Below are positions 6,001-51,000 of a stretch of 64,000 nucleotides of DNA, one piece after another. The notes below the pieces were generated by a model. It saw nothing but the letters and a program-made list of their open reading frames with translations. It was not told the DNA's origin and searched no databases. Source of the DNA: an uncultured Planctomycetia bacterium (lineage in GTDB: Bacteria; Omnitrophota; Gorgyraeia; Gorgyraeales; Gorgyraeaceae). The stretch spans positions 283,819 through 347,818 of the forward strand of contig CAYPYS010000001.1 of assembly GCA_964415355.1 (NCBI GenBank), given 5' to 3'. Position numbers and translations under genes: made by a program. The stretch's first letter is position 1; every line of letters begins with the position of its first letter.

Positions 6001-9000
6001 TCCAAAACCAAAAAGTCTCATAATTCTTTTGCATCTTATCTCAATGTTATTGACGAACTTTTTGTCCTTATTCCTTATATCCTGTAAATAGAGAAAAGCC
6101 TTTTCGAATAACAACACCTCTGTCAGGCTTTCGGGAATATTAAATACGTATGCATCTTTTTCAGAACTTAATATATATTCCTCATATTCATTTACTATCT
6201 TCTCTTGAATCTGGAATCGTTCTTCTGTCCTTACAGATTTACTGTTTCCAAAGCCTGCAAGCTTCCTGATCCCCTTTCTTACTTCATGCCTTACCTCTTT
6301 AATCAAATCTCCATATGCCGAAGCCAGTTCTCTATCATTGAATCTTAAGGCATATGCCATAGCAAAATACCCTATCCATAAAAGCGTCACTGCCCCGTCT
6401 AGATTCTCAAGCTGGCTCTCTACGCTCAAAACATCCAACGTCCTAAGACTATGGAGCCTATCAACTAGTTTTAGCATTACGGCTTTGTTTTCATCCTTAT
6501 GCCTTGCCGCTCTATATAATGAACTGTAGAATAAATGCTTTTTTTGATTACCATGTTCGTCTCTTTCGATTGTAAGCAACTCAACATACCTAGCCACCCT
6601 GTCTCCAAAGTTATGCTTTATCTCTCTGACTGTAGCTAAACCATCTTCGGGCAGATCATGTAACAGAGCAGCCATTATAATATCGATATCCAGTTGACCA
6701 AGCACCATAACTATCTCTGCTACAGCCGCAGGATGGCCTATCTCAGGAGTCCCTCTTTTCCTAAAACTGACCTTTTTTACCTGCGCAAGCCTTATAGCTA
6801 AAAAATCATATGCCTTTTTTATTAGCCGCATGTCTCTTTTGTCCACTTTTTCATCAAGAAGTTCTTCGATTCTCTTAAAATAACCCAGTTCAACGCTCTT
6901 GGTTCTAATATAACGTGTTAACAAGATCCCAGAAAAGAACATAATCAAAATCATCATCGAAAATACAACAAGATTTACTATCAGGTTTGGGTCATTTAAA
7001 AATCTATATAAAAGTAACGCGAGGGCCTCCATGGCGATTATTTTTAGCGTCAATAACTGAAACCCTGTAACGATAAGACTTGTAAAACTCGGAATAAATA
7101 GAGGATCCCATCCCCTGGTCTCGATAGTATTCTTTACTAATAAATATATGACCCTCTTTTGTATAAAACTGTCGTATAAATATCTCTTCTCGAGGAACGG
7201 CTTCATTTTTTCCGGGCAAATACGATAAAAGATATGTTCCGAACAATAATCTTCAAACCTAGCTATATTGATATGCTCTTCGTATTTTTCTGTAGCAATG
7301 GCTCGCGGTTTATGTAGCAAGAAACCCAAGATAACCAAAATAACTGGATCAAATACTGTAAGGATAAAGAATAATGCCATTATTAGATATGCAGACATAG
7401 TAACCGGGACCCGTTCTGCGATCAGCGATGTGATCACAAGCAGAAACATTAAAAATAAAGCGACAAAAATAAGATCTCTTTCTCGAAGTCCAGTTAAAAA
7501 TGACCACTGCATTGTTTCTTCTTTTTCACGAACAGGATATACATTCCTGATAAAGCTGGCAGCTATGGCAGTGAAAAATAAAATTAATAATAATAAACCC
7601 AGACCATATGAAAAAATAAAAGAAAACTTGCCAAAGCGAAGAACAAAAATAGACCCTACAAGGATTATAAGTAAGGGCGCTGAAATCCAATATATTATCC
7701 TGCCTATCCTGAGCATAGGGTAACTATTCGCTATAACATGCAAAATAATAGATAGGGCAAAGAACATTGGAATAAATAAGTCTACAGAAGGTTGCAATAA
7801 CCCCAATAATGCCGTGCTGACAATAGTAATAAATAGTCTTCCGTCAGAAAATGCAAAGGTGAGTTTTTCTTTGAAAGAATTTTCTTTTGAGCGAGGAATA
7901 TGCAAGAGGTGCCAGAAAATACGCGCACATAAATATGCTAGAATTACTGGCGGGCCATGCGCAAAGGGTATACCAAATGCTCGGCTTAGCAAGAGAGCCA
8001 GGCCGCAGACAAATATTGCTTCTTCAACAAGGGCTGGCGCAAGCGCCTGGCCTATAAAGCCATGCCCGATCTTATCATATAACCACTGCAGCCATGGAAA
8101 ACGCCCACCAAGAACCTCCAGATCTCCTTGTAGAGATTCTAATTCTTCTTCATATTCAATAAGGTCATCGACCAGGTCCAATGATATAGCAGCCAACAGG
8201 TCGCTAAAAGCCTGCGTTTTGTCATGTTTGTTATCTAAAAATGAAGACAAGGATGCCCCTCCGCTAGATAGCTCAGCCTTAGCTTCATCAGCTCTTGTTA
8301 TACGCGCCTTGGCATTACTAAGATCACCAAAAAGACGTCTTTTTGCTGGGTCTGAATCAGAAGCTTCTACTAAGTCCGCTAATTCATTGCGAGCTCTTTT
8401 TTTATCTTGAACAGCCTCTTTTCTGAACTGGCTTATTTCTTTCGATAATTTTCCCCTGGTGCTTCTTACTTTTCTTCTAGCCTTTGCTATTTCTTTCTGC
8501 TTCTTCCTTATTTGTTTTTGAAGTTCATCATCCTCAGTCATCCCGAATTCAGCAAACATACTCATCTGCCCAGGAGAAACCCTGGTTTTTCCGCGTCCCC
8601 TCCACGCCATCGCAAACATGAAAGCTGTAAAAATCACCATCACAAAATCAGCTCTAAGTATACTTTCAACATTGTTGAAAGTATACTTAAGCAGGGCGAA
8701 GATGATAAAAGGTAGTGCTAGTGAATATAGAGTGATATACTTTTTCTGCACAGCCTCCGATACTCCCTGGCTCTTATAAGTTTCCCAATTAGATGCAGAC
8801 CAGATCTCAATAACCCCACCCACCCCTGCTATAACGACTTTGCTTAATCTCTTTATGCCGGCCTCTTTGCATAATCTACTACCTAATGGTAAACATCCAT
8901 TACTATTAAACCCTTTCCCTCCTTTATCAGGAATAACTCTGATATAAGACAAGCTCTTATCTTCTCCTATCAACAGCTTAACTTTTCCATCTGAAGATCG

Positions 9001-18000: not shown

Positions 18001-21000
18001 GAGCCTTACGGGCTCGACCAATCTCCTTTTAATCTCCCCAGCTAGCTCCTCCAGCGCCTCTTGCCGCTCGGTATTGAACTGTTCGAGAATCTCACGAGGA
18101 ATACTGTTCGAGCGAGGCGACTCCAAATCTGCTTCTCGACCTTGCTCGAAGAGGATTTGGAGTCGACGAGTCGAGAACCTATTCTGAATCTCTTCTATCT
18201 CACCCTGCAGCCACTTTGCAAATTGCCTAATCGGCTGCGGAACCGCTTCTATGCTAATTCTATCCCATGCTTCTCCATTCTTCTCGACAACCCTATAGAG
18301 AAATCCATTTTTACCAAAAACATCCTGATTCCTAAAATCAGTGTCTATATTTGCAACTAGCTCAAGTTTAATTCCTCTCGCATCTGCCTCCTGACTCAAA
18401 ATCCATTCTGCGGATTTTCCATAATATCCTGTCCTTGTATCGCTCGTTATAAAAATAGTCCCGCCAAGAGTTATGAAATCAAGTATTAAATTGATTATCG
18501 ATGTTTTTTCCTCTCTTGTAAAATGATAGTGGATGTCGGTGAATACATTTAACATTGAGATATGGCAAAATGAACTCTCTGACCACTGCTCTGATTCCGC
18601 AACCTCAAATATGCCTTTGCCTTTACCGTAAATCTTCACATCCAAATGTCTGTCTAAATAACTCTCTATGTGTTCTTTTAAGTCTTTTGTATTATCTATT
18701 ACGTCTTTGTCGGGATCCACAGCATGCACTTCAAGTCCTCTTATTGCATCGAATATTGGCAACAAGGAAGCGCCATATCCTATATGCAGCGACTTATCTC
18801 CTATTTGAAGCGTTCTGTCTAAAATTCTAAGAGATTCTTCACTTGCAGTGCTTGGTTTACGATCTGGTAATTTCTCCAGCACATCTAAAAATTCTCTCAA
18901 ACCTTCGCTATCCCCAACCACTAGCTCCCCTATCACCATTTCATATAACCCTGCCAGAGCAGCTGCTGTAATCTGCTTTCTGTTCACTATTGCATCATTT
19001 ATTAGTTCGATGACGCTACTTTGGTAATCTTCACCAGAATCTGCCTTTTCAGCCTCCATCATAATCAACTCAGCGTTTCCACCAAGAGACATCTCAAAAA
19101 ATGTGCCTTTGATAAGATCGCTAACAAGAGGTGTTGCAACCGGACGCCAAGACGGATCCAAAGTGATTTCAAGCCCAGAATGCTTCAATACCTCTACAAA
19201 ATCATTGAGCTCGTCATAAATATGCTCTGTAAGTACAACAAACTTGCCCGCAACGCCAAGTAACAGGCTCGTTGAACGTGCAATATCAGCTGTGAACATA
19301 TGAGGCTCTTTTGGCATGCTATCATTTGGCGGCATAGGCCCGATCATATATATCTCGTCAAATCTAATCTTATCTCCAACCAAACCAGCAAGCTCCTCAA
19401 CCTTCATTCTTATTGATATGACATCTTCCAAAACACCTACAGAAGGAGCAAATACAAACTTTCCTTGTTCTGGTTCAACCCCAATAATAAGCCAGCTGGA
19501 ACTATCTTTTCTTTTTATGTCCCTTATATTCAATAATTCTTTCCCTTGGCCTGCTCCGATACAAAGCGCGCATTTAATATATTGTCCTTCCTCAATTTTT
19601 CTACGCAAATCTTCAGATATAAACCCATTCACATCATTTGAAGATAAGGATCCCAAAAGTTTTACAACTTCCTGTGCAGTTTTGCCTCGACTGCTGTCAC
19701 CGTAATCTGCCTCTATGGCTGCCACGAGAGCCTCGAACTCGTGCTCACCTTCATACTTAGTCACACTGTTATCTGTGATTCGATAAACAATTCTGCGCCC
19801 TGATTTTACCTGATCACCATAAAATATAGATTCTGCAATAGCTCTTAAATCTCCAACATCTGACAAAGCGTCCTCTAGCATAACTGTATTAATTGTTACC
19901 TTCTCCCAACTAGAGGTTTTTAACAAAATAAAGAATCCGCTCAGTAAGAATTTTTCTGCAAGTATATCAACACCCTTACTAAATCCTTCAGCTGTAGAAT
20001 CACTGAATAAATAAACAGGCCTGCCTTTAAATTCGTTATCTTCTGGCATAGATTTTAGCAAACCCTGCGCATCCTTAATGAGGGGGTCTTCGCTAGTAGC
20101 GATCTTCGCCTCACTAGCACCTGCTTCAATCGGAACACCAGAAGGTACATTAATCTCAGTCTCTATCTGTACATCTGCAGCCTGCTGTATGAGCTCAAGA
20201 GCACCCATTGTATCTTGTTGCATCTTCTCAGCTCGCAATCGCAGAAGTCGCGCAACAGCATCCTCGGTGTCCTGCATAAAAATCAGAGATATACTAAGAT
20301 CTGTTTTTCTGATAAGATCTATAACATCCTCTTTTTCACACCATTCTGGATCATGTACTCTAAGTCCTTGATCCTGTAATACTTCTACAAATCTATCCAG
20401 AGCTTCATCCCACCATTTTTCTGTCAACAGTGTAAATTGACCTGTTTCAGATAGCAATCGTGCAATTGCTTCTGCAATTTCAGGTTTAAACATATGCTTT
20501 TGCGTGGTAGCTTCGTCTGGCGGCCAAGGACCAATCATATAAACTTCGTCAAATTTAATTCTATTCGTAACTAAGTCTGCAAATACTTCAAGGTTTAATT
20601 GACATGATACTATATCTTCAGGCATATCCCCGCTGATAAAAGTAAAACTCCTCTTAAAAATAGCTTGGTCTGGCTCAAGGCCAATAATAAACCATTTCTG
20701 GGCATCCTGATTGTTTTTCTTTAATTCTTTTAAATTTAACAATTCCTGACCTGAGCCAACGCCTATACAAAGAGCTAACTTGACATCTTCACCTTGCTCT
20801 ATAGCCTTTCGCAGATCTTCGGAAATATTGCCCTTCACCTTTTCCTCAGGCAATGTGGTAAGAAACTCCAGAAACGCATGCGCATAACCTCTATTTGCAG
20901 TCGTCTTCGTTGTATTCGATTTCGACAATACATCATCTGCAGGCACAAGTAAGCTCACCGCGCCATCATCGGCTACGGCCAAAGCTAACTCTGCCTGAGC

Positions 21001-24000
21001 CTCATCGCGCGTAACACCAGGAAAGTCTATTTCGAACTGGACCATGTCCTGGCCGTCTATAATTTCATTGCTCGCCCTGATCTCGCCATTCATTTTATGC
21101 AGTGATCTCTTTACAAATGGCAATGCAATGCCATGATTAAATTCAGGCCTTTTGTGGTCCAAGACAAACAACTGTTCCAGGTCTCCTTCTATCTTTCCAG
21201 GATTTAAGATAGTAAGACGACTATAAACTTTACCATCTCCTGGTTCCACTCTAGAAAGCCTTAGAGTTACTTTTCTTGATGTCTCTGGTATTGTAGATTT
21301 ATTGCTAATGATTGCATTAAAACCGTTCGAAACAAGACGTTCGATAATTAGATGGAGTAGCTGCAGATGTCCTGAGATCAAAGAAATATCTTCTCCTATG
21401 ATAATCTCAACAGGAGCGTCTTCCCACTTTGTCTCTAGGGCTATCTCTCCTCTCTCGATCTTGCCTAAGTAATCTATTAAATCTATAATTTCAATGTCAT
21501 GTAAAAAGCTCTCTTTCATAGAAGCTCTTATAACTTGGATATTTACTATCCATCGAGAAATTATATTGCGACATTTCTCGCTTGCTTCTTTCTGTGAGAC
21601 ATCTGATACAATAATAATCTGCAATGCTCTCCTTAGTTCTTCTTCTATATCATCTAGAATTTGTATAAAATCTTCTGCAAGCCCGTTAAGCTCAGCAATA
21701 GTTATTCCATCTCTATCCGACAGATGATCTTTGAATTCTCCTTCTAGTTTTTCCCAGTAAATACGTTGTAAATTTTCAATGCTTCCTGTTAAATCTAAAG
21801 TTGTATAGTCCTGTTGCCATTCTTCAAACTTACTAATTACAAGCTGCGCCAGATTTGCAAAAGCCAAAGGCCCGCCATGCCCCATTATAGCAACAGCTAT
21901 CTCCAGATCATCCCAGTGATAAAGAGTCTCTTCTCCCAATGCTGCCACATCTCTTTGCAACCGAATCAAATACATACCATCCTTGAATTCATATTTAAAG
22001 ACAGGTTCTCTAAGAGCTATTTTTAAATCACGATCTTGTGAAGACCCAAAGTTGCTGATTAGAATACTCCCCTGTCCCTGAAGCGTCTCTGCCATGGCAT
22101 TTAACATAGAACGATATACCGTCTCGGTTTCCATGAGACCTCCTTTATTGATGAGCTTATTGGCATATGTACTGTCAAATAGCCCTGAGGAGATTATCAG
22201 ATCCACGCTTCCTGGCTTGACCAGATCTTCATAACGAGCCAATTCCTGCACCACATCTCCGATAACAGTAATATTAGAGCCTCTGTTGGTTTCCCATCTG
22301 GGATTTACTACTATGACCTGTGAATCAGGAAATCTTTCAGCTACAGTTATAGGGATATTAGCTGTATCCGGCCCTACAAACATTATGGTCTTACCGTTAA
22401 GGTCTGTAATACCTAATACCTTATTTAAATACCTGCTTTCAATAATCGGCCAGGAACTTGATAAACTATCGATAGCAATAGAATGAAGGTTGTCATCTGG
22501 CAGGAATAACGACTTCAAATCTATCTGCTGGCCTTCTTTTACTTCAGCTCTTGACTTCACAAGCTGCAGGCCAGCTGCAAGAGTATAAAGGACATGTTGC
22601 TGTCGCTTCTCTGACTCAGGCACGCCGTTTGTGAGTAGAAAACGTATCTTGCTAAGTATGTTTTCGCCTACTCTCTTTACTAATCCTGGAAGTGCGCCTT
22701 TTTTTGCATCAAAGATAGCTATATCTTTTCCATCTGTTTTCGCAAAAGCGAGCTGTGTTTCTTGAGATAAATCATCTAAATCAACGAGCATCTTAGGTCC
22801 ATGCGCAGTATCGTCTTCGGAGATTGCTTTGTCGCCTGCGGCTCCTCGCAATAACACATCCTCTCCTGCAATGACACCTGGCCACGTCACCTGGATTTGC
22901 GCACAGGGAATACCAGTATCGAAAACTTCTTCCAGAAGCAGAGGTAAAATATCTTCTATTTCGCCTTCTGCCTTATCCACCCGGATACCTTTTGTATCCT
23001 GCAATCCATTTTCAAAAACATGCAGCCAGTATTTTTTTGCCTCGGGTAGATCACCGATCCCTTTTCTGGCAATAAGTCCGACAAACGGAATTAACGCATC
23101 TATCCCAAACTGCCTATACGCATCTCTTGAGTCCTCTATATAAGCAAACAAAGGCTCTATCGACTCTAACGGCAAGTCAATATATCTATTAACGACTTCT
23201 TCAAGCATAGCCTTTTTAAATTGCTGCAGCTGTTCGCCTCTGGTGTTTCCATAGTCCTCTGGTTTGCCTGGAAATAAGGATATTTTTTCTTTTTCTTTGC
23301 GCCATAACATAATACACAAAGGAAACAATATTTCCGTCAATGCATCTTTAAACGAATCTGGCAGGGCTTCTTCGCCGACTATGTCGAATAAGCGACTAAA
23401 CTCTTCGATGCGAGTGCGCGTGTAAGTTATCTTCCCAGGTTTAGCTTTAAGGTCTAATTCAGCCATGTACTCATACCAGCCTCCTGTCCGCGTTTTATCA
23501 ATAGTAAAACCATAATGCTCTAGAACCTGCTGCGCTTCGTGTATTGCAGCTTGTGATTCTATTCTTAAACCAGCGCCGAAAAGCTCTGCCTGGCACCCTT
23601 CAAATTCAGCCCCTATTTCTTTAAGCGCACTAAGAATTTCTATTAAAGAAAGCCTTATATCGTCTGCCTGCCTTGAAAAACCTACCGCAATTGCCCATTC
23701 ATTCGACTGAAAAAAATGCCCCATGTAAACATACTGTCGTCCTTGTATCTCTATTTTTGGGATGCAAAGTCCTAGGCAATTCTTCACTTCATCTGTAGAT
23801 ACTAAACTCAATGTGCCTGAATCATGGGGGACCAATACGCTATACCCGGCATTAACTTCTAATCCACTCGCTGTATGAAGAATAGAAACTATCTCTACTG
23901 ATGCTTGTCCGCGAACTTGAGCATGGGATAATAAGATAAACTCTGTTTCCGGAAGGAGCCTTTGTAGTTCTGAAGTCAATCCAGGATTATTTAAAGTAAC

Positions 24001-27000
24001 TGGAAAAGAATCATCGGATTCATTCTTAAGCTCTATCCAATCTTCTGTATTTGTGGTTAAGAGGAGGTTTGCGATGGTGTGGGCAAGCTCTTGGTCCTGT
24101 GTTTCTCTTAATACTATTTGGTAGATTTCTTGTGCTATAGGAATTACAATGCGGTACCATGCGTTGATAATCTGCTCAAAGACTTCGTATGGATCGTTAT
24201 CTGGAGCCCTTGCGTGAATGGATTCGCCAAAGGCTTCAAGAGCAAGATTAATCTTTGCAATATCTTCATCAGTCACAGGCCTAAGCGGGTCAATAGTCAA
24301 GCTATCAGCAAGTTTTGCTAGCTCCTGTACGTCATTGTAAATCCTTTCTTCGTCATTGCGAGCGAAGCGAAGCAATCTCAAGATCGTCTTCTTGGTTTCG
24401 CGGGAACCGTTTTGCGCCTCGCAATGACGAGCCGCTGCTTCTAGCTCTTCAATCCTAGGGAAACGCACGCCAAGCGCTATATTTGGCTTATCTACCCCTG
24501 CTGCGTCCAGGATATTCTCTACCTGCTCCCTGGCTTTCTTTGCAGAATAACGTAGGTCAATGTATAGTTTCTTTTCGCCTGACGCCTTTTCGCCCAGCAC
24601 CCTGAGCGCCTCTCGAATCGCCGCAACACCTGCAGTGACCTTGCCGCGGATAAGATATACTATTTTCACAGCTCCGGCAATAAAAGGCAAGCTATCAGAA
24701 TCGATCATTGTGACATCTATATCATTAGAATCTTGATGATCTTCCACGGGTATATTAGAATCCGTAACAACTAAAGGTAAATAATTATATTCTCCTCTTT
24801 CGCTCTGAGGCGGAAGTACCTGTCCCATATCAATAGGAGTATATGGCAAAGTGATCATCACCTTCGTGCCAGTTTCGCATTGCAAAGAATCAGAATTACA
24901 AACTTTGGGTTTTGAGAATTTCCCGCCTTTATAAAAAATCTCATGAGCCTTTTTGCCTTTGACACGACTCGCTACCCGAATGCTCCCATCATGCATATCT
25001 ACGACATTCCTGACCTTTCCAAGCCCAAGCCCTGCCCCTGCAAATTCTAGATACTCGGGTGTCTCTGGATCAAAACGATGGAACGACGAGCAAATATAAA
25101 ACATAGACCTCAATCTCTTCTTCGGTATGCCCTTGTTGCTATCCTCTATAGTATAAACATAGCCTTCGTCAGTCTGATAAAAATCCTCATAGATCGTACC
25201 TGTCATAGACCTGTCTATAGGATCAAAATGAGCGTTTGTAACAGCATTTTTGAGTAATTCGTAAACCATCAATTCAATAGTATTAGCAAAAACAACTAAT
25301 TCCACTTCAACCTCTTTTGATGGGATTACCCTTTCTATCCCAGAAATATCTATGCCCTCTACCTCTTGAAAATACGATTTAAGCGTAGCCCAGGGATCAT
25401 CTGCCTCTCTAAAATAATATATATCTTTAAAATCGTGAATATATGGATACCTAATACTTGAAAAATATCCAAATAAGACAGAAAACATGATCTCTACCAA
25501 CCTGCAACTGTCAAAATTGATCTCGTCTAACCTATGTAAGCTGCGTTGTATTTTTTTACTGGTGGCTTTTTCCTCTAAGATATCTATAAAATTCATGTCT
25601 ATAACCGTAGGATAATTAGAAAATATTATGTATTTGGACAGATCTTCGAATAATTCTAAAAAGCAATCTATTGCCTTTTCGTATTTTGATTGTGTATATA
25701 AAATTTGACCTTCTTTAAACGCATCGAGCAATTCAATCTTAAGAGGCCTGATAAGAAGCAAGCGCTGGCCAATGACTTCTTCTTCAAAGATTCCACTTTC
25801 CTCCCCAAGGGAACCAGCGATCTTTTTAAGCAGTCTCATGTATTCATTGAGCAGCATATATAATTTGTTTATAACTACTAAAGTCATTTCAATTACTTCT
25901 TTTGTCTTTTTATCTTTAGGATATATCGCACGAAACATGTCAAAATAATCGTTAACGCGGCGTATCCTGCGGGACCTGGGCGCAAGAACCCTGCCGATAC
26001 TAAAGATCTCTTCGTTAAAAATCTCAGGAATGGTTTCTTCATCCAAACCTAATATATATTCTATCAATGTAATACTTCTAAGAGCCAAAGATGTTTTAGT
26101 ATTTATTAACGGGATCTCACCTTCAGCAGTATGCATAACGGGGATTTGCTTCTTTTTTGATCTACGACTTCTTTTGCTATGGCCTGATAAAGCTAGAAGA
26201 GAATCGTTGTCGAATCTTCGATTGGCAGCGATGATTCTTTCTTCTCTTTGCATGGCATCTTCTAAAATATTGCGAAAATCAGGACTCTTTGTTTTAATGC
26301 TTACATCGATAAGAAAACTTATGGCATCTTTGAAAATCTCTGCCGCGCAATCTTTCTTCTCAATAAAAGAGATCAAAAATACGACGCCTTTTTCATTAAG
26401 CTTCATTCTCCTAAAATTACGTTCGACATAATGGCCTAATGTATCTGGCAACTTTTTTCTTAAAAGAAGTTTGAGGTCTTCGTCTAGCAGCAGATGAATA
26501 TTATATGACAAAATATTACGCCTGATCATTTCATCTGAAAGATAAGGATTCATTTGAGATACTTCGCTAATAATAAGGCCTAATTCCTCAGCGCTTAATG
26601 TTAATTCATCAGCCATATCCCATATCTCTATAATACTCTCTGGTAAAACCACTGAAATATTAGACAAGACTTCTCTTCGAAATTCTGCATCCTTATTAAG
26701 CCTCGCGATAGTATCTTCTCTATGAATTTCTTCTGACAAGGCATGGGCTATATTTATATCGTCTTCATCTAAAACTATGTCTCTGAAATGTTCCACGAAA
26801 ATCTCCATTAATAAGTCTAGCTTTTCTCTCCTTTCCTCTGCTGATAATGGAGCTTTTTTCTTTTTCTTGATACCTGTATTTTGTCTTTCTTCCGGTTCTA
26901 TAATTGCCTCTTTTTCTGCTGCCTCTACCCCAACAACTGCCCGCATGCCGCCGCAAGATTCCTGCACTGCTGCAACAATAGCGTCTGATACATCTGACCT

Positions 27001-30000
27001 CGGCCCCTCTTGCATCAGTAACATCCCAACCTCATCATCACCAGGGTTAGCTGCGCCCTCTAACCGCGCTAGAACAGTTTCGAGAGCCCTACGCATTTCT
27101 GTAGCAGTCTGGTATCTATTATCTGGCTTTGACTGAGTGGCTTTTTTTGCCATTTCTCTAAGCGCTGCTAGGTCTTCAGTTTGCCAATCTGCCTCTCCTG
27201 CAGCTAAAAGCTCCTCTAAAATCCTGCCCAGCGCATAGATATCAGACCTTTGCTCAGCGTAGCCTTCGAACTGCTCAGGAGCTGCATATCCTATAGTGCC
27301 TTCTTTACCATATTCTCCCTCGTATGGATGAGGGCACGCTAATCCAAAACCACCAACTAGTACCCGGCCTGTATTGTCTTCTATTTTAATATTCTCGGGC
27401 GTTATATCTCTGTGTATAAGCGCTCCTTCTGTAAAATTATGCATGTATTCCAAGGCCTCGCAGACTGTCATTACGTATCTTACTGCGTCTTGCAAAGTAT
27501 AAGAATCTATCGCTTTTTCCTGCCTGTTAATCAAATCTGCCAGATCTACGCCCTTAGGATATTCTACAAAAAAGAATGGCGCATTGTTTGCTTCCTTTCC
27601 TGAGCTAAGCGTAACAGTGCATGTGCTTTTCCCATGTACCCTTATGATATTGGGATGATGTCCGTCAGGATGCTTTTCATGCAAGGCCCTTAATATATTA
27701 TATTTTCTTTCGAAAAGTTCATCAAAGATTGCCCTTATGTCTTCAGGCGGGATTTCTCCAAGCACCTCTAGAGCTACTATTTCTTGCGTCTCAATATCGC
27801 TGCATAAATAGAGTATCACGCGATTACCTATTTTAAATTCGCGTTGCGCCACGTATCTCTTTCCATCATCAGTAATAATTTGGACCTTTCGTCTTTTTGC
27901 TGTTAAGTCACGAAGCCTTTTCTCTATGTCTATCACTGCTATTTCTGCTTTTGCGCCTTTATTATAAAATACCAATTGGCCTGGCTTATTGACAATGGCA
28001 GTCCATTCCATGCCTTCTTCATGCGCTTTAGCCTGACTTCTGATCACCTTTACTTCTTCTAACAAGAATATATCGTCGTATATATAAGTACCTGTGCAAG
28101 CCAGGTTAAGTTTTCTCGGTGAATCCGCATTCAGCTTGCGCATAGCCTCCCATGCGCTGGGAGTCGCTATCAAATACCTGTCGCCTAGCTGCGCAAAGAT
28201 ATGCATGACATCAAACTCGCCTTTTTCAGTCACTAAGGTAAAGCTTGATAACAAAAAGTCCAGGGAAATATATTCATGAAGGGCTAATTTATCCCTAAGT
28301 TTAGCAGGCATCTTTTTTGGTTCTCTTTCCTCGAGCTGTGCCAACACGCCTTCAAGTGCCCAGAGCATCTCTTCTGCGGTCCTGTATCTATTTTGAGGCT
28401 TAGAAGTAGTGGCTATTGCTATAACATTCACGATCTCATCAAGCGCATTACCAAGGCCTTCAGCTGCACCTTTACCAAAACGCTTGTCTATGACTTTTCC
28501 TGTCAGCGGGTATTCATCAGTAGTAAAAGTAAAAGGTGTCACATCTTGTGCATGTTCATTATCCAAAAGATCCTTTAGGGTTATGCCTAACGCATATGTA
28601 TCGCATCTAGGCCCCTCCCAGCCTTTGTATTGCTCAGGAGGCGCATATCCTTCAGTGCCAATTATTACCTTGTCATCAAAAGGATAGGTGCGCACTGTGC
28701 CAAAATCAGTGAGTACTGCACTTCTTGTGCCTTTCTTTATTATAATATTTACAGGCTTTACATCGCGGTATATAAGGTCGCGCCTGTGTAAATATGCTAT
28801 TACTCCTGTGATCTCTCCTATCCATCTCACAGCATCCAGCACAGTATAACAATGCTCGCCTTCTGTCTGTCTATTCTTAAGATCTTCCAACTCATCGCCT
28901 TCGATATATTCCATTACCAAAAATAATAGATCGCCACCGATACGCTTACCATCAACAAAAACATCGCCTCTGCCTTTTTCATAGACCTTGACAATATTAG
29001 GATGGTTACAGGTTTCTAACATTGAATATTCTGCTTTAAAAAATTCCTCTATGGACGGTTCTGTCAATAAGCACACCTTTAAAGCTACTTTCTTCTTTCT
29101 TTTCGGATCCCAGCATAAATATACCCTTGAATCATTGCCACTGCCTAGCTCTTTTATGACCTTATACTCCGGACCGTCGCGGATTGCATTGGCATGAGCT
29201 ATGATCCTTCCTATAGGCCTGGCTATTGGCGTTAACATAAAACCCTTGGCGCCTCCAAGTCTCGCAACGCTAAAGCCGTAGTCCATCCACGCTTCTACAG
29301 TGTTAGGTATAGGTTTTTTCCATACCTCTGCAATATTAGGCATGGAAAAAGGCAGCACGTCTACAAATAACTTGCCTTCATCGCCTAATATTTGCCTGAG
29401 CTCTCCTAAGTGACGCTTTGTTTTTGCTTCATCCTCGTATAAGATCTTCATGGATTCAGTGCTGAAGATCAGATCTACTGAATCTGGATCTAAATAATAT
29501 AAAGATAGGCTTGCTGCGCGATCAAAGATAATAGTAATCCCTTCAGGAAGCTCTAACCATTTTCTAAATGCTGTTTCAGAAAGCCCTATAAGTTTTATCT
29601 CTTTTCCTATGCCATTTTCTATGCCGAGCTTTTGCAGTTCTCTATGTAATGCTTCTCTAATATTTAAAAGCGCTGTTCCATCTCCGCACCCCCAATCCAT
29701 GACAGTAATCGGACGGCCGAGCTCTTTATATAACTCAATGATCTCTTTAACCAGGTTGCAATTAAGCCTTTTATTGACAACAGCCAAAGAAGCATTGAAA
29801 TCAACGTATTCCGAATTCCTTACCAGTTCCAACTCTTTGTCCTCGCTAGCACGCACGCTATAACTCTGAGAACCTTCTTCATCTGCGCCAGTAATATCCG
29901 AATTTAATTCTTCTATCTGATCTTCTCCTAATCGGCTCTCTACCTCAGCTCCTCCTGGAAAGCCTATAGTGGCAACGGCCCCTAGTGTACTCTGCAGTTT

Positions 30001-33000
30001 AATTTTAGGTCTTTTTGTAATGCCGAATCTACGAAAGATCTTAGTTACATAAGCTGCTGAACCAGTTGCCGTTAATTGCGCATAATCAAAGCTGTCAGCT
30101 TTCCAAACCGTATCTGCATAATGCAGTGCATAAGCCATCAGAATAGTGCCAATTCCCTGATTCCTAGACCCAGAAGCAACAGCCAAACTCGCAAGAAGAA
30201 CAGTTGTATCTTCCTTAGATATATAGACGAAAGCTATTACATCTCCGTTATCATCCTTATAAACCCAATAAGGTGTAGCAGAAGGGTTTATAATTATTTT
30301 AGGGCAGGTTGAAGCAGCCAGATAAATCAGGAGATTGAGTTCATTAATCACATCAACATCTTCATTGGTCGCTGGCTCAATACGCTCCCACATTGCCTTT
30401 GAGAAAACATGTCTTCTCCCAAAAATCGTCACCTCAATTGTCTCATCCTCTTGTACTCCTCCTCCAAATCCAGCAGCTGGAACTATTTCTATTTGGTTTC
30501 GAAGCTTCTCACAAAGTCCTAAGACTTTGTGATCTGCATGAGCATCACTAAAAGTAATAGCAGCCATCAGACTATTCCATGAAGGAAAATTCCATGCTTT
30601 CACTAAATCCTCTTGAGTCTCACCAAAACGCTTCAGCAAGACAAATGTACCTGCCCATTCAAAAACCATCTCGATCTGAGACGTAGACCTTGTATAGTAT
30701 ATTCTGGCTGTTCTTATACCAATCAGAAAACGTCTAAACCTAGTAGGATCTTTATTTAATTCTTCACGCGTTACTTCTAATAATGGAAGCAATTTTCCTC
30801 CTTTCGCCTGATCAGGAGTAGGCACTTCTTCTGAAATAGCACGATAGAGTGCCCAAAAAGCCTTTTCTCTGGGAGTCTTCTTGTTGCCTACGTGGTTCTC
30901 TAAAGCCTTTAATAGACCCCCGTGCGGACGTTTCTCTGAGGCATAACCCAAAGTATTGGCTAATTTCTTTCTATCGCTAAATCCTCTTACAAAAGCTAGG
31001 GCCCATTTTTCAAAACCAGGCCAATCAATAACTTCTTGGCTTATGAAGTATATCCCCAGCCATGTCTCAAAAAGTTCAGGTTTTTCCATTACACCTTTCA
31101 ATGTCACATCTGCTTCACCAGAAAATTCTTGTGCACGCTCATAAGTCTGTACTTTTATTAAAGCTTCGTGAAGCGTCTCTCTGGCTGAGATGATTTTTTG
31201 ATCATGAGTTCCCTTAGCTTCAAAACGACTAATAAGCGACCTGAGGCTACGAAATCCCCATATCTTTATTGTCAGATATTCTAGCTTTATATTTGTCCCC
31301 TTTATTTTTTCTATTTCTAACGTAGCCCACTTTAATACCTCTATTGGCTCTAGGCGTAGTCGTCTCGGCCAGAGCTCATAAAGTTCTTTGGCTCTTTTTA
31401 GTTCTCCTCTTACTGATATATACCATTCAGTCCATTCAAAAAATGACCTCTTGCCTCGTTTAAGATCTACAACTGTTGGCGCTTTACCTTCAGCTATTAT
31501 CTTAAACAGAATCTTTAATACCTCATATGCGTGCTCATCGTCATTATTTTTTGCATACTCATTGCAGGATTCAGTCAGACGACGGCTAATGATATTCATA
31601 GGAGGGGTTTCACCTTGTTCAAAAATACCCAGCTTGACTACAATACGCGCCGTACCAAGATCTTGCTCTGCCATCTCTATAACCTGAGCGACTACTGCAT
31701 TAAGACTTTCTTTGGGTAAATAATATAATTTCTTTTCTTGAGGGTAGTCAGGCGCCGCATCAGCTGAATCTTTGGGCATCTCTATAGGTGGCTCAGGTGT
31801 TTCGCTAGGCGTATGAGGAGGCTCACCGTTTTCACAAACCTTGTTAACTATTCTGTGTAACTCATAAAAACGCTTTACAACGTCAGGATGGCTAGGTTTA
31901 ATTTGCAATCTATTAATCAATCCAGCAGTTGTCCTGAAACTCCTATGCCCCCATCTGTCTAGTCTTATCTCAGGCCTTTGCGCTTCTTCTATAAAATAAT
32001 CCAGCACCTCTAAAGGCCTGTCACGAAGACAGACAAGCCAGATATTATAAATACGCTGACGATAAGAATCTGGAACATTTTCAAGAATAGATGCCGTATT
32101 GCTAAGCCAATCATTAACCCACGATCTAAACGTAATATCCATTTGCTTTCCCTCTTCAAGCTCGGAACGCGATAAGCCCAGACCTGGCCCTATAATAATT
32201 CTAACTACTGCTCTTAACGCAATATAACACTCCCCAACATCAGGATCTTTAATTTGAAAATGTCTTTGAGATCCCGTTATTTTGTTTATAATGCCTCTTT
32301 TCTTATCTGTACATTCTAATTCTCCAGGCTGAATAATACCTGCTGCTATAGCAATCTCCTCTATCCCCTTGTTCTCCTCAGCCATTGCAACAATCTTTTT
32401 GATAACCTTATCAAAATCATCATCTGTTAATTTATAAGGTTTAGACTTAATGTGACCAGCGGGATCTGGAGCTCCAGCTCGTATAGATCTTCCAAACTCT
32501 ATATTAGCCAGTTTTATATCTTTAATACCTGCCTCGTCAAATGCTTCTTGATCTATCAGCTCAGCCCAGCCTCTAGCAATAATTCCAATAGCGCTTCTGT
32601 ATTCTCTCCTTTTCACCCAAGAGTCTACCGCTAAAAGCCATAAGGTAAAGGCATTAAGAAGCTGCTCCCTAGAAAATTGCTGCATCCCGACTCTCCGATA
32701 AATCTCCAAAGTCTCTTCATACCCACCAGGCCTCTCTTCTAGGCTAAATTCAAAATCTGAATCCCATCTCGTAGTTATTCTGGCTATCTCCATATCCATT
32801 TTTGCAGTATAGTAAAGATCATTTTTCATCACAGGAAATATTATCACATTGCCTGTATCAGTACATCTCAGTAAATATATCTTTTTTCCTTCAGATAATA
32901 CAAAGAGGGCTTCTAGGAAATTTTCTGCTTCCTTGCCTTTACTTATCCCAAAATGATCTATAGCCTCTTGAACTGTAAACCATGCCCGTCCAAAGTGCTC

Positions 33001-45000: not shown

Positions 45001-48000
45001 GATAATAACTGAAACTATTACAGGCACTCGCCGCGCCACCTTTTTCTTTATTTCTTTATATTTTTGACCTGCTGCCTCTCTTCTCCTAAGATTTTCTATT
45101 CCTTCTGCATCGGGTCTTATGATAACTATAGCCTCATTATCTAACTTTAAAGAATCCCAATAAAAATTAAGGATTTTGTCTGTAACAACACCAATTAAAT
45201 TTATAATACTATGAGCCATTATAGCGGCTAACATTCCGGCAAGCCTCCCATATAAGATATTGCCTATGGTATAGAGAATAAGAAAGAACCCCCTATAAAG
45301 AAAATACACGATTCTAGTTTTTGTAGAATCAGCACTATGAGCAAATGAAAAAATACCACAAAGGACAACCGCCCCTAATATCAAATTATTGAGCATTGAG
45401 TCAAAGACAATGACATAACAACCAATGTATAAAAATTCCTCAAACAAAGGAAATATAGACACCTTGAAGAAACTTGTTACTATGCTCTTTTCCGGAAGCA
45501 ATCCGTTTATTAGAGGGGCTTGTATAAGTATTGATGCTTGCACAGCAAGCAGAGTAAGAATATGCCATATTAGCAAAGAAAATCTAAAATCTTGAATTTG
45601 GATTAAATCAAAAATATCCCATATCAAACATGAAGATAAAACTACTGAAAAAACAAAGAATATAACTCCAGAACGCCATGAACCAATAATATCTAAATCA
45701 TTTTCTTCTGGATACTTTGCAGTTAAGATCTTTTTCACTAAACGCCATATCAAATAAAACTCAAGAGTCATTATAATAAAATTGGCTATAAGAGCTCCTG
45801 TTCTAATGTCAAAAGCCCTGGCAAGAAGGATTAAAGTAAGAGTGGGTATTGCGAGGATCTTAGCAAGTTTATACTTAGGCGGGCCGCGGGTAGAATTGCT
45901 GTCTCGCGAGCCCTGTGATCCAACAAGACCCAAGAACATAAATGGAAGACCGGCAAGAGATTGCTTCGCTTCGCTCGCAATGATGGAATAGATTCCCGCT
46001 TTCACGGGAATGACATTGGTTGTAGAGAGGAAATAGGTTATACCTATGAATAATAATATTGCGGTTGCTGCTGTGGGGGCTGCTGGAGCAGTTGGCTTAG
46101 CTGAATCGCCGTTAGTCTTTTCATTAGCTATAACTATCACTTTTTTTAAATACTTACGGTCTTTGATAAAATTTTCGTCTTCTTTGAACCACTCTATATC
46201 AAGAGCTGGGAATCTCTGTTTGTCATTCAATAAATCACGCATCTTTTCAAAGACCTTTGAAGCCAAAGCTTTTGCTTCAAGATAAAGCTCTATAATGCGT
46301 TCCTTGAGTTCCTCATGGGAATCCTCTTTAGCTATCCTGCTTAATGTTTCCGCCTTGTCAAATACCTCATCTACTTCTTTAAGAGCCTCTTCGATTTCGT
46401 ATCTAAACAAACGCTTCTGAGCCGTTATAGTCTCTATCTCCGCACTAAATAATTCCACAACTGTCTGGGATGAGTAGACTCTATCTTTTTCGTCTTTTAA
46501 CAAGCTATAGTCATAATTATCATCGAGTGAGTTTAGTAACTCACGTCCTTCTTGTATCTTTCTGTAAGCTGCCCCAGGATTAGGTTCTCTACCAGGCTCT
46601 GCCTTAGGATCTTTGCCTGGTTTTACTCCTTTGAGTAATTCTTCTGCTTGTAAAATAATTATTGCAAGACGATTCTCAAACCTTGCTAATTCCTCTTCAA
46701 TAAACTGTCTACTGATATCATGTATTATGCCTGAGAAAGTTCTTATATTGCTAATATATTCACTATTTTTTATATTCTCAGGTGCTGCTTTTAATACATC
46801 TATTAATTCATTGCATTTCTCATGTCCAAGCACTCTATCCCTAGTCTCTTTATGCGCTACATAGATATCCTGCACATAAGGCACCAGACTAATCACAAAT
46901 TCTGTTATCTCTATTGCCAGAAGCAATGCAATACGGACTGCTTGTATTTCCTCTAATGACTGCCATAGATTGCCTCTATCGTCCTCTCCTGGTTTGATGA
47001 TCTCTAGTGCTCTAGAATAATTTTCCAAAGCCCCCTCATAGTCACGTGCGGCAAATAAATGCCACGCCTCATCGGCATAATCTGCCAGTCGGCTCTTTAT
47101 ATTCCTGAAAATTTGAGCGTTTTGTATTGCTATAAGGCTGGTGTAGATCTCGTCTGCTTCAGTAGATATTTCTTTTAATAAAGCATCGATATCATCATGC
47201 CTGATAAATGAAGTAGGCAGCCTCATTTCACGCAGTAATGCCTCTGGATCCTTTAAGGATTCAGCCAGGTTAAGGGCCTCGATCAAGTTAGGCTTTCCGT
47301 CTTCTGATAAGGCTTGTTCTATTGCTTTTATCTTTTCCATAGATGCTCCAAGCCATTTTTCTATACGCGCTGTCCTTATCCTTATCGTATCTGCTTTAAT
47401 CCTTTGTGGTTCACCTGTCTGTTCAGTAGTAATTCTTATAAACTCTACGAAATCTTTCCTTTGCGTAGCCAATGCTTCTTGTTCTTCCCGTTCTGCCCAT
47501 TCTATTCTTTTATTTCTAAGCGCCTTTACCACCATAACTGGATTAAACATCTTTTCAAAAATAACGCTATCGTCACCGGCAACCTCTATCTTAACAGTGC
47601 CATACCGAAATACATTTGCCCAAAATCCCTCCAGCAATGCCTCTTCGCTCTGGATCTTATCAAATGGTATCTCCTTTTTGTCGCTATCTTCTGGCGGGAA
47701 GCCAGGAAATGTCGGTATCTTAAAAACAAACCCTATCCTGTCTTCTCTTAAGATAAATTCATCATCTTTCCAATCCTCAACTGCATACCAGAACTTGTAT
47801 AATGCAGCCAATAAAGGTACAGCAGCAGAAATAATAGCTCCTCCGCCTATCACTCCCGTTAAATCCAGCAAGAAAACTATCAATGATATTAAAACAATAC
47901 CTTCGGAAATAAGCCCTGAATAATCATTTCTCTTATCCTCTTCATCATCCTCTTTTTTATTAAAATTAAAAGCTGCTAGATGCATTAAAAATATCAATAT

Positions 48001-51000
48001 TACGCTTATGCCGAGCCAAACAAGAATGCCGAGAGAAAATACTTTGGCAACAGTTAAATAGAGCATGACCGTAATTGCTCCATGTGCTAATAAACTTAGG
48101 GCTGGCAAGAAAGCCTGCCCTATTAAAATAAACGGGTGTTTACGATAGTAAATCTCTTTATCTTCTGACCAGCGATGCGCAGGGAAAAACGGCAAAAGCC
48201 TTTGCTCACTTCCTATGTTTTTCTGCTCTATTTCTCTCATGGCCTTCTGACGAGCTTTTTCAGCCTCTACTCTCTTTAAAACTGCCTCATCCGGCTCCAA
48301 GCCTCTTCGCCTGGCAATCTCTATATCCATAAGATCTGTATCATGCGCTGCTCTTCTCTTCTCCTCGATCTCCTTGGCTTTCTCTACTATAGTTACTACC
48401 TCTTTTGCTTTAGCCGCAGAAATGGGCCCAAATACTATCTCTTTCTTGTGACCAGCTGAATCTATTTCAACAAAGCATGTCCCAAAAATACCCTGTAAAA
48501 AAGTCGACTTTATGCTATTATGCTGATATTTTTCCAAGTCTATAGACACATCTGCTCTTAAAGAAAATAATATGTTTTCAGTCGCTGCGACACGCCTGTC
48601 AGTAACTACAATAAAATCATTTACAGAATCATGCCAAACATAAGCCAAAAATGCGCCATATATGCCTAAGACTATTCCGCTTGTAAATATGAATGTACTT
48701 AAAGACATGATCTTTAAAATACCTAGCTTAAAAACAAAGAATGGTAAAACAAATATCGTTAAGGCTAAAAGAGTAACAGGCAGAGCTATGCGTATTAATA
48801 GGTGAGAAATATGTTTTGTCTCGCAAAACAAGACTTTTTCTCCCTCTGTAAGCCATTTGAAATCCTTGCCTTCTAAGACTGGCAATTCTTCTTCAGCGCC
48901 ACCTTCAGTTACTACTATGGCATCTCTAGGAGTTTCGTTAGTCTCATATGCCACTGGCGGAAGATCAGTAGCGACACTGATCATGGTATCTTTGGTCTCT
49001 GATTCTTCAATTAAAGTTCTTAAAGCACTGAGATCTGGTTCTTTTGCCACAACAGGGATCCCTTCTATTGCAGTTTTTACTGCTCCTGCAATGCCCTGGC
49101 CTATTTTCTCTATTTCTTTCACGATATCTCTTAGGTTATTCTTTATGCGCGCGCGAATAATACCTATTTTAGTATTGATATCTGTCAGTTCGACTTTTGG
49201 AAAATCAAATAAAACAGGCTCTGGTACTTTCTTAGATATAGGTATTGATGACAGATCGAGATCGCCTCCAGTAAGAGGAGACAATAACGCATGGCGCTCA
49301 CGACCACCGCGAGACAATGATTCTCTAAAGCTATCGCTGAGCATGTCTTGGCTACGGGAAGAAACTTCTTCTCCTGCTCCGAATGAAGCCATTACTGCTG
49401 TTGCAGTGCCAGCAGCTGCAGCTCCTCCTGCAGCTATCTCTGCTGCCTCTGCAACTCCTGCAGCCAATTCTGCAGCCGCAGCCATCCTTCGCGCTTTCAT
49501 GATACGAGAAACAGCAGTTATTGCACCAGTTAAACTCGCAAGGGAAATGCCTCCGCCAACACCCATTAAAACAGCGGCTTCGCCTGGCTCTTTACCTGTA
49601 ACAAACATTATGCCGACAACTACTACTGTTACAAGGCCTATAACAAGGCCTGCGACAATGAGTATCTTTGCCAAAAGCGAGACCTCGCCATCTCCATCTT
49701 CATCATCTCTATCTCTTCTTCTCGGCCATTCTCTTTCTGGTCTATCCTTCTCAACAGGCCTATCCTTTGGCTTTATCTCAAACTTTGGTAGTTTTGGAAA
49801 CAAGTCACCTAGCTTAGGAGGATCCCATTCCCTTGGTTCTCTTTTAGGCCTCTCGCGTTTTACCCTAGGTTCTCTCTTAGGAGTTGGTCTTTTTTCACGG
49901 TCAGGTTTTCGTTCAAGCAATCTCTTCAGCACAGAAATAATCCCACCTGCTGCGCCTATTGCGCCAGCTCTCATCATAGCGGCGATCGCCTTAGGCGTCA
50001 GCCTCGGCCCCAGATCACTGATTGCCTGGATAATGGCGCTGGATTCTTCTTCATCATCAGCTTTTAAGAAATTAAGGACAAAGCCGACGCAATCCCGCAC
50101 CAGTGAGATTGAATCATGCAATACGGCTCCGAAATTATCGTTAAATAGTTTAGCTATCGGCCAATCTTTTGGCATCCCAAGAGCCACTAATGCTGCTTCC
50201 TCTGAATTCATGTCTTGCTGCGATATACCTTTCCTGCCTATCTCACTAAAATAAACAGTGTGGCTGAGGGCAATATTTATATTCGCAAATAATTCCAGCG
50301 CATAATTATCAAGGGTCTTGCGGAACTTGTCCAATGTAACGGAATCTTTATTGCCTTTCCTCGCATTTTCTATAAGATTGTCTATGATATCTTCTACCTC
50401 TAGCTTTGTCTTAAAGAGACGGTTTAGGGCATTTTGTAACTTAGTCTTGTCTTTACTATATTTATAGACATCCAGATGTTCCATGATATAGGCAATGCGT
50501 TTTTTATAGCTCTCCAGGCTATCAGAAGAAGCTCGTTTAAGGGCATTCACTAAATGATCAAGCGCATCTTCTGCTCCTTCTACTTCCAGGGAATTTGATT
50601 TTCTAAAAACCTGTACCAGCATAACAATGCCTTCATAACAATCTCTGCCGACTAACTGAAAACCTGCCCAGCGAGCGATCTCTCTATTTACTGCAATGTT
50701 CTGCTTTATAAGCTCTTCTCTCTCATCCGTAGAATCATTATTTGCTAAAATATCTTGATCGTCACCCGAAATCGCCAATTGCTCGTTTAATCTATCTAGA
50801 TCTTCTGATAATTCTTTGGCGCGCGCTTCTAACCAGTTTATATACTGATTTACGCCATCTTCTCTATCTATAAACACCCTATCCATCTGTTCTGGAGTCG
50901 TCTTTCCCAGCATTTCCTCATGGTTACGCAGCATTTCTTCTCCCTGCCTAAGGTCATTTTCCTCTGCTGCTATATCTGCAACATCAGTTTCTAACTCAGC

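Follow-up and report, generated by a model that had tools for sequence, protein, structure and literature searches.

A PknB-like kinase domain and its predicted pseudokinase paralogue inside a giant multi-enzyme open reading frame of an uncultured Omnitrophota bacterium

Three kinds of described system lie closest to the locus analyzed here: Hanks-type Ser/Thr kinases such as PknB, bacterial pseudokinases, and the giant proteins of Omnitrophota. Bacterial pseudokinases are defined by the loss of at least one of the VAIK Lys, the HRD Asp, and the DFG Asp (10.1101/2025.01.12.632604; PMC12599244). The recurrent domains of Omnitrophota giants include methyltransferases, NUDIX, GNAT, HATPase_c, and HEAT_2 (West-Roberts et al. 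2023, 10.1101/2023.11.21.568195), and a 2026 preprint on complete Omnitrophota genomes describes a "Module 1" comprising PF08241, PF02518, PF00583, HAD, and HD domains, as well as a class of "multi-enzyme metabolic cluster" giants. In that preprint the giants are mostly sequence-unique (80% are singletons at 30% identity), and one giant of 122,534 amino acids (aa) has roughly one transmembrane (TM) helix per 370 aa. Pkinase domains are unmentioned in the main texts of both preprints (2023 and 2026). Here we describe a 64,000-nucleotide stretch of DNA, referred to as the window, from an uncultured bacterium assigned by GTDB to the Omnitrophota (assembly GCA_964415355.1, contig CAYPYS010000001.1, positions 283,819 to 347,818). 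It is spanned by a single giant open reading frame (ORF) that encodes two neighbouring Hanks-type kinase domains, kinA and kinB, of which the upstream one is probably a competent kinase and the downstream one a predicted pseudokinase. The features that carry this finding are listed below by window position.

1-63999, minus strand: giant ORF of 21,333 codons, stop-free and open at both window ends in a six-frame scan
28324-29181, minus strand: kinA, PknB-like RD-type Ser/Thr kinase domain (ORF aa 11,607-11,892; Pkinase 115.7 bits, E 3.2e-33)
29079, 28764, and 28707, minus strand: kinA landmarks, namely the Lys codon of VALK, the Asp codon of YRDVKPVN, and the DFG Asp codon
27880-28323, minus strand: linker of 148 aa between the kinase domains (ORF aa 11,893-12,040), of no recognisable family
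27058-27879, minus strand: kinB, predicted pseudokinase domain (ORF aa 12,041-12,314; Pkinase 71.8 bits, E 7.9e-20)
27768, 27705, 27402, and 27351, minus strand: changed codons of kinB, namely beta3 Lys to Glu, alphaC Glu to Lys, catalytic-loop Lys to Thr, and DFG Asp to Gly
27408, minus strand: retained HRD Asp codon of kinB, in HRDITPEN

From the coding strand's base composition, a stop-free run of 21,333 codons has a probability of ~10^-667. GC content by codon position in the ORF is 51/36/35%, and the remaining five frames of the window contain 530-1,932 stops. The lack of a stop, its improbability, and the coding-like GC by codon position together argue that the giant protein is real and longer than the window (>21,333 aa).

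A first-pass annotation of this DNA had placed two tandem Hanks-type kinase domains within a giant protein and had named a search with the Pkinase hidden Markov model (HMM, PF00069) as the check. Both domains were recovered in the places given, on the minus strand in the one window-spanning ORF. PF00069 matched the giant protein twice (joint E 3.5e-53), and when each domain was scanned separately the scores were 115.7 and 71.8 bits vs. a gathering score of 31.7. A bacterial Ser/Thr kinase HMM run with filters off located exactly two kinase-like domains in the entire ORF (29181-28324 and 27879-27058). Two outcomes that would have spoken against the annotation, degeneration of both domains or failure of HMM detection, did not occur: kinA is intact and both domains are HMM-positive. 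The further claim that both are unambiguous catalytic cores held for the YRD domain, kinA, which keeps the invariant residues, and failed for the HRD domain, kinB, which has lost Gly-loop G1, the beta3 Lys, the catalytic-loop Lys, and the DFG Asp.

The residues were checked in a multiple sequence alignment with 32 bacterial homologues and in a 540-domain alignment containing 538 other sampled kinase domains. kinA aligns with M. tuberculosis PknB over the full length of the domain (E 5e-24) and retains all columns with a conservation of 97% or more among the 32 homologues: two Gly-loop Gly, the beta3 Lys, the alphaC Glu, the catalytic Asp, Lys, and Asn, the DFG Asp, the APE Glu, the subdomain IX Asp, and the subdomain XI Arg. 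Its G16, G18, K38, and E54 stand in columns of 97-100% conservation and are aligned to VAVK and E59 of PknB. Besides the landmarks listed above, kinA displays a GSGNDS Gly loop, the alphaC Glu, GTEGYAPPE, and the subdomain XI Arg; APPE is also the consensus of the aligned bacterial homologues (GYAPPEQ). The Tyr in place of the HRD His had been taken as a sign that this domain could be atypical, and the opposite was found. In the 538 sampled domains the column holds His in 419, Phe in 54, and Tyr in 47, the five closest homologues of kinA also have YRD, and the YRD domain is the canonical member of the pair, the HRD domain the degenerate one. The catalytic loop of PKA likewise reads YRDLKPEN. 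From these residues we infer that kinA is a canonical, catalytically competent RD-type Ser/Thr kinase.

One position in the alphaC helix is recorded separately. The residue preceding the alphaC Glu is Ala in kinA (window ~29034); 322 of the 538 sampled domains have Arg there, and kinB keeps the Arg. A bacterial kinase atlas calls this alphaC Arg "bacterial-specific" (10.1101/2025.01.12.632604).

The losses in kinB were seen consistently in the PknB alignment, in BLASTP of kinA against kinB, and in the multiple alignments: G1 of the Gly loop is Lys, VALE stands where the beta3 Lys would be, the catalytic loop reads HRDITPEN, and DFG has become GFG. The HRD Asp, the catalytic-loop Asn, the APE Glu, the subdomain IX Asp, and the subdomain XI Arg remain. 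kinB has an acidic activation segment, GFGLACPHPYEGEYGKEGTIGYAAPE (it includes PYEGEYGKE), in which no Ser or Thr precedes the GT motif. At the alphaC position, Glu in 463 of the 538 sampled domains, kinB has Lys, and none of the 538 pairs an acidic residue in beta3 with a basic one in alphaC. On alignment, kinB thus appears to reverse the beta3-alphaC salt bridge characteristic of kinases in the active conformation. The 0/538 frequency of the reversed pair argues that the contact has been retained, and against random decay. When modelled with its homologue alignment, kinB gave a confident kinase fold (AlphaFold2 predicted local distance difference test score, pLDDT, 80-97 over the domain), and the model is closest to PknB (Foldseek E 8e-14). 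Since the VAIK Lys and the DFG Asp are lost and the kinase fold is kept, kinB is a pseudokinase by the published definition, and we predict that it is catalytically inactive.

kinA and kinB are 33% identical (BLASTP E 4e-35). Among 299 collected proteins, the best match of kinB is kinA (134 bits, runner-up 115 bits), and kinA has two outside relatives slightly closer to it than kinB is. The sequences flanking the two domains are unrelated, i.e. the flanks were not duplicated. The linker between the domains had no Pfam match, no PDB sequence match, and no paralogue inside the giant ORF, was matched by no database protein among the matches to the kinase module, and was modelled at low confidence (AlphaFold2 pLDDT 30-57). 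Because the closest relative of kinB is kinA, the simplest history would be that the kinase domain was duplicated within the gene and that the downstream copy then lost catalytic residues.

With the tandem module or a 2,500-aa segment as the query, no orthologue of the kinase module was found in a word index of 5.8 billion proteins, in GTDB species genomes, or in JGI metagenomes. From the protein index came nothing but generic bacterial kinases, which were 31-38% identical and spanned a single domain each, and the genomes and metagenomes gave only matches of ~23-36% identity. A query made of the guanylate kinase-NUDIX-phosphofructokinase block of the giant ORF gave no match at the 1e-10 level, in a search whose candidate stage was probably swamped by words from hydrophobic segments. 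IMG/VR contained no exact DNA match. An exhaustive HMMER search of 1.84 billion representatives gave a best match of 224 bits at 32% identity and no orthologue. Its top-scoring matches are unrelated proteins with three to five kinase domains, many including degenerate ones (P0148, P0149, P0151, P0152, P0255, and others, none orthologous). As degenerate domains are frequent in these multi-kinase best matches, kinase-plus-pseudokinase polypeptides are a recurring bacterial design. One further protein, P0219, is a 7,165-aa giant-gene fragment that fills a 21.7-kb Logan contig. It has 14 hydrophobic segments and three apparently intact Hanks-type kinase domains ~1,000 aa apart. It was considered as a relative of the giant ORF and rejected, as the two have only kinase domains in common.

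The kinase domains lie in a part of the protein that is free of strongly hydrophobic segments and is shared with other predicted enzyme domains, listed here.

18973-32172, minus strand: stretch of ~4,400 aa without TM-like segments (ORF aa 10,610-15,009; Kyte-Doolittle scan)
30109-30276, minus strand: core of a GNAT acetyltransferase, acetyl-CoA-binding region (Acetyltransf_1, PF00583, E 2.4e-8, 34.7 bits vs. 20.7)
29362-29766, minus strand: methyltransferase-like segment (sub-threshold Pfam matches and a motif)
29703-29677, minus strand: motif I-like VMDWGCGDG, recognized by eye, with DLIFSTESM and LGDEGKLFV further along
24841-25278, minus strand: HATPase_c (GHKL) domain (Pfam E 2.9e-14 to 5.5e-10, 40.1-53.9 bits vs. 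26.4)

Hydrophobicity was scanned by the Kyte-Doolittle method (19-residue window, threshold 1.6), yielding 79 strongly hydrophobic, TM-like 19-mers in the giant ORF, ~1 per 270 aa. The TM-free stretch holds the GNAT domain, the methyltransferase-like segment, kinA, kinB, and HATPase_c. The dense cluster of modifying domains described in the first-pass annotation is therefore present, all of it within one ~4,400-aa stretch, and its members should lie on one side of the membrane because no hydrophobic segment occurs between ORF aa 10,609 and 15,010. We infer that this side is the cytoplasm of the producing cell, the simplest placement for domains that depend on ATP, S-adenosylmethionine (SAM), or acetyl-CoA and that no TM-like segment separates from one another. 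The 2026 preprint leaves localization undecided; about half of its Omnitrophota giants look cytoplasm-facing and membrane-anchored, and others look exported.

The GNAT and HATPase_c domains had been named as near neighbours of the kinases, and both stand. The GNAT match is limited to positions 33-90 of the 116 in the profile, which form the acetyl-CoA-binding core; it is also above cutoff in Acetyltransf_7 (30.6 vs. 27 bits), with weak ArsN2/RimI-like NCBIfam matches. HATPase_c is situated ~590 aa downstream of kinB. It is of the catalytic and ATP-binding (CA) type found in sensor histidine kinases, and in NCBIfam it matches sensor histidine kinase models over their C-terminal ~110 positions only. 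Neither HisKA nor another family of dimerization and histidine phosphotransfer (DHp) domains was found by Pfam in the 600 aa upstream of it, the ~590 aa between kinB and it contain no clear H-box, and no Pfam family besides HATPase_c was found in the 800 aa tested. By its predicted architecture we class it as an orphan GHKL ATPase domain and do not call it a histidine kinase.

A methyltransferase had likewise been reported at 29.7 kb, and in the Pfam scan this neighbour stayed below threshold. The best match was Methyltransf_31 (E 0.099, 12.8 bits vs. 27), followed by Methyltransf_23 (E 0.21). All five weak NCBIfam matches (E 0.015-0.22) are of the methyltransferase type and are anchored on VMDWGCGDG, and the motif spacing looks right by eye. 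The segment had no PDB sequence match and no significant match to the three methyltransferase domains recognized elsewhere in the ORF, and a single-sequence AlphaFold2 model (pLDDT 37) was unusable. A divergent class I SAM-dependent methyltransferase fold is probable but unproven.

Pfam scans of the whole giant ORF, run in overlapping 5,000-aa chunks, added the following domains, in the order of the protein.

Between the first 5,000 aa of the visible ORF and ~40.4 kb, minus strand: bPH_2 (sub-threshold Pfam match)
~40.4 kb, minus strand: methyltransferase (Pfam)
~38.7 kb, minus strand: guanylate kinase (Pfam)
~37.6 kb, minus strand: NUDIX (Pfam)
~36.2-35.2 kb, minus strand: phosphofructokinase (PFK), full-length domain (Pfam E 1e-43)
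~17.9 and ~14.5 kb, minus strand: two more methyltransferases (Pfam)
~16.4 kb, minus strand: HEAT repeats (HEAT_2, Pfam), between the methyltransferases at ~17.9 and ~14.5 kb
~8900-8760, minus strand: MraZ-like (sub-threshold Pfam match, E 2e-4, 21.6 bits vs. a cutoff of 23)
~6700, minus strand: HD_4 (Pfam)
~4300, minus strand: RelA_SpoT (Pfam)
~1500, minus strand: PRPP-synthetase N-domain (Pribosyltran_N, Pfam)

In these scans a PF08241 methyltransferase, PF02518 HATPase_c, PF00583 GNAT, HD_4, NUDIX, and HEAT_2 are thus all present in the one ORF. Several side observations concern its layout. Enzyme domains of central metabolism and of nucleotide signalling share the polypeptide, with hydrophobic segments between them, and a (p)ppGpp-type HD domain and synthetase region lie ~700 aa apart. 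The first 5,000 aa of the visible ORF (window 49000-63999, minus strand) have no Pfam family at E <= 0.01 and form a large unannotated protein block with only ~3 hydrophobic segments. About 35 TM-like segments are packed at window ~46100-40950 on the minus strand (ORF aa ~5,970-7,680). This run coincides with the only part of the plus strand in which the AT skew is positive (40-46 kb), which presumably reflects the second-position T excess of hydrophobic codons. Frame 2 of the plus strand has only 530 stops vs. 1,234-1,932 in the other non-coding frames and contains ORFs of up to 482 aa (for example 48806-50251, 59360-60157, and 47147-47920). These are most likely not genes but shadow ORFs that the giant gene's codon structure produces.

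The reading we favour, with a probability of roughly 55%, is that of a duplicated PknB-like module in a giant multi-pass, multi-enzyme membrane protein, in which a competent kinA is accompanied by the pseudokinase kinB as a non-catalytic partner, both in the cytoplasm. The substrates of kinA would be sites in the giant protein itself or in its partners. kinB would be held in an active-like conformation, with its reversed Lys/Glu pair, the Arg-Asp of HRD, and an acidic, phosphomimetic-like activation segment, and could act on kinA allosterically, through dimerization, or as a docking scaffold. The partner role is suggested by analogy with the pseudokinase domains of JAK and GCN2, with MviN in PknB signalling, and with PknB dimers. 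PknB activation proceeds through a back-to-back dimer. The mycobacterial pseudokinase MviN acts in PknB signalling (PMC12599244). Several points weigh against this reading as a whole or in part. No orthologues were found in the collections searched that would show the kinB substitutions to be conserved. Neither FHA nor PP2C partner domains were seen in Pfam scans of the 64-kb window. The hydrophobic segments that flank the TM-free stretch are weak and positive-inside counts are ambiguous, and in the 2026 preprint some multi-enzyme giants are predicted to bear a signal peptide and to hold their enzyme content outside the cytoplasm. Further, kinB has a Lys in its Gly loop and the WNK1 and WNK3 structures rank high in its Foldseek search, and ATP binding or catalysis persists in some kinases that have lost the beta3 Lys or the DFG Asp (WNK, POMK, and ULK4; PMC12599244).

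The last two points bear on the idea that kinB is an atypical enzyme or nucleotide binder, in which the Gly-loop Lys at G1, or an Arg four residues on, replaces the beta3 Lys in the manner of WNK or POMK. kinB does retain the HRD Asp and the catalytic-loop Asn, both Lys and Arg are present in its Gly loop, WNK1 and WNK3 are among its top structural matches, and compensatory ATP binding in pseudokinase-like domains has precedents reviewed in PMC12599244. We nevertheless consider such an activity distinctly improbable. Four ATP- or Mg-contacting positions have been lost together, and two of them, the DFG Asp (now Gly) and the catalytic-loop Lys (now Thr), are kept in WNKs; the kinB Lys occupies G1 and WNK uses G3; and the WNK matches are no better than the matches to PknB. 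At the other extreme, the two domains could be functionless passengers, relics of domain accretion in a fast-evolving giant ORF, with kinB merely the more decayed. The sequence uniqueness of most giants, again the 80% singletons at 30% identity of the 2026 preprint, would fit this, as would the clear degeneration of kinB and the lack of a module orthologue in 1.84 billion representatives. It is made very improbable by kinA, in which all of the ~12 residues invariant in kinases are intact, its nearest relatives being 31-38% identical, a retention not expected without selection, and also by kinB, in which structural residues are kept and the fold is confidently predicted, in a frame that is intact across 64 kb.

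A different placement of the same domains would have the block exported and displayed, or injected into prey, so that kinA would be an effector kinase acting on prey or host proteins. Secreted bacterial kinases include Legionella LegK, Yersinia YpkA, and M. tuberculosis PknG. Omnitrophota giants have been read as extracellular and prey-directed, with secretion systems encoded beside their genes (10.1101/2023.11.21.568195), and the 2026 preprint predicts for its largest multi-enzyme giant a signal peptide plus TM segments, with the enzyme content outside. A weak NCBIfam similarity to LegK1 (73.9 bits vs. a cutoff of 550) points the same way, and is what generic kinase similarity would give. Every domain of the block needs a cytoplasmic cofactor (ATP, acetyl-CoA, or probably SAM), PFK, guanylate kinase, RelA/SpoT-type, and PRPP-synthetase-type domains are found elsewhere in the ORF, and the N-terminus of the giant protein is beyond the window, leaving no signal peptide to cite for export. 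On balance we hold an exported kinase to be unlikely. The favoured reading, a cytoplasmic kinase with a non-catalytic partner, can also be carried further, to a built-in switch in which kinB, locked in an active-like state by its reversed Lys-Glu bridge and acidic activation loop, would allosterically switch kinA. kinA in turn would act by phosphorylation on the metabolic modules of the same chain of >21,000 aa (PFK, guanylate kinase, NUDIX, RelA/SpoT-like, and PRPP-synthetase-like) and coordinate them. This extension is speculative and we give it little credence; if true, bacteria would have Ser/Thr signalling within one molecule on a scale that has not been described in them.

Few gene products are as poorly understood as the giant bacterial proteins, which run to tens of thousands of residues. 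The kinA/kinB pair is a small, expressible module and so offers a practical experimental handle on them; the activity and substrates of kinA would distinguish a self-regulating cytoplasmic enzyme assembly from a prey-directed effector. The reversed charge pair of kinB is, in addition, a natural experiment, for it affects the very salt bridge by which the active conformation of kinases is defined.

Compared with known systems, both domains find their best PDB sequence and fold matches among Hanks kinases of the PknB/Stk1 type (M. tuberculosis PknB and S. aureus Stk1). With these kinA shares the full catalytic set, an RD-type loop, and the Ser/Thr-type HRDxKxxN and GT motifs. The best NCBIfam family is PknB_PASTA_kin (NF033483), at 205 bits vs. 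an equivalog cutoff of 450 and over profile positions 9-279 of 563 only. Unlike the PASTA kinases Stk1 and PknB, the giant ORF has no Pfam match to PASTA domains. It also differs from them in its 26-38% identity, in having no single C-terminal TM anchor, and in carrying the kinases mid-chain in a protein of >21,000 aa, and kinA differs in having Ala instead of the bacterial-specific alphaC Arg.

Set beside the bacterial pseudokinase families (ActPs1-3, DLHK, GLW, CP1, and DYD) and MviN, kinB fits the shared definition. The P. aeruginosa DLHK example (AVLT / HRD / GFG; PMC12599244) likewise keeps HRD and has GFG, and MviN is like kinB a pseudokinase domain fused to a membrane protein. The available texts of 10.1101/2025.01.12.632604 and PMC12599244 do not describe a reversed beta3/alphaC charge pair for those families. 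Membership of kinB in DLHK on the strength of the GFG/HRD resemblance was not adopted, kinB being closest to kinA; because of that similarity it looks like an independent local degeneration and not a family member. The catalogue of bacterial pseudokinases would thereby gain an example that was duplicated locally and sits within a giant protein.

JAK (JH1/JH2), GCN2, and plant tandem kinase proteins such as WTK1/Yr15 likewise unite an active kinase with a degenerate paralogue in a single chain, and the giant muscle proteins UNC-89 and obscurin combine a pseudokinase PK1 with an active PK2 (PMC13242403 and PMC11487192). These tandem kinase-pseudokinase proteins are eukaryotic and unrelated in descent. 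In the giant ORF the order is kinase, then pseudokinase, with a 148-aa linker.

As to the protein that carries the pair, SecA-DEAD, C39 peptidase, and dockerin, hallmarks of Omnitrophota giants, were not seen in this 64-kb part, which also holds no marker genes. With the multi-enzyme and Archaeovorin-type giants of Omnitrophota the giant ORF shares a length of >10,000 aa and the Pfam content of Module 1. Its density of hydrophobic segments (~1 per 270 aa) resembles that of the Omnitrophota giant with ~1 TM helix per 370 aa, and its sequence uniqueness is as reported for these giants. It appears to fit the description of Omnitrophota giant multi-enzyme proteins well, membership being judged by architecture only. 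Each part of the locus is thus of a known kind, be it the Hanks-type kinase, the bacterial pseudokinase, or the giant multi-enzyme membrane protein around them, and its unusual feature is the reversed beta3/alphaC charge pair of kinB.

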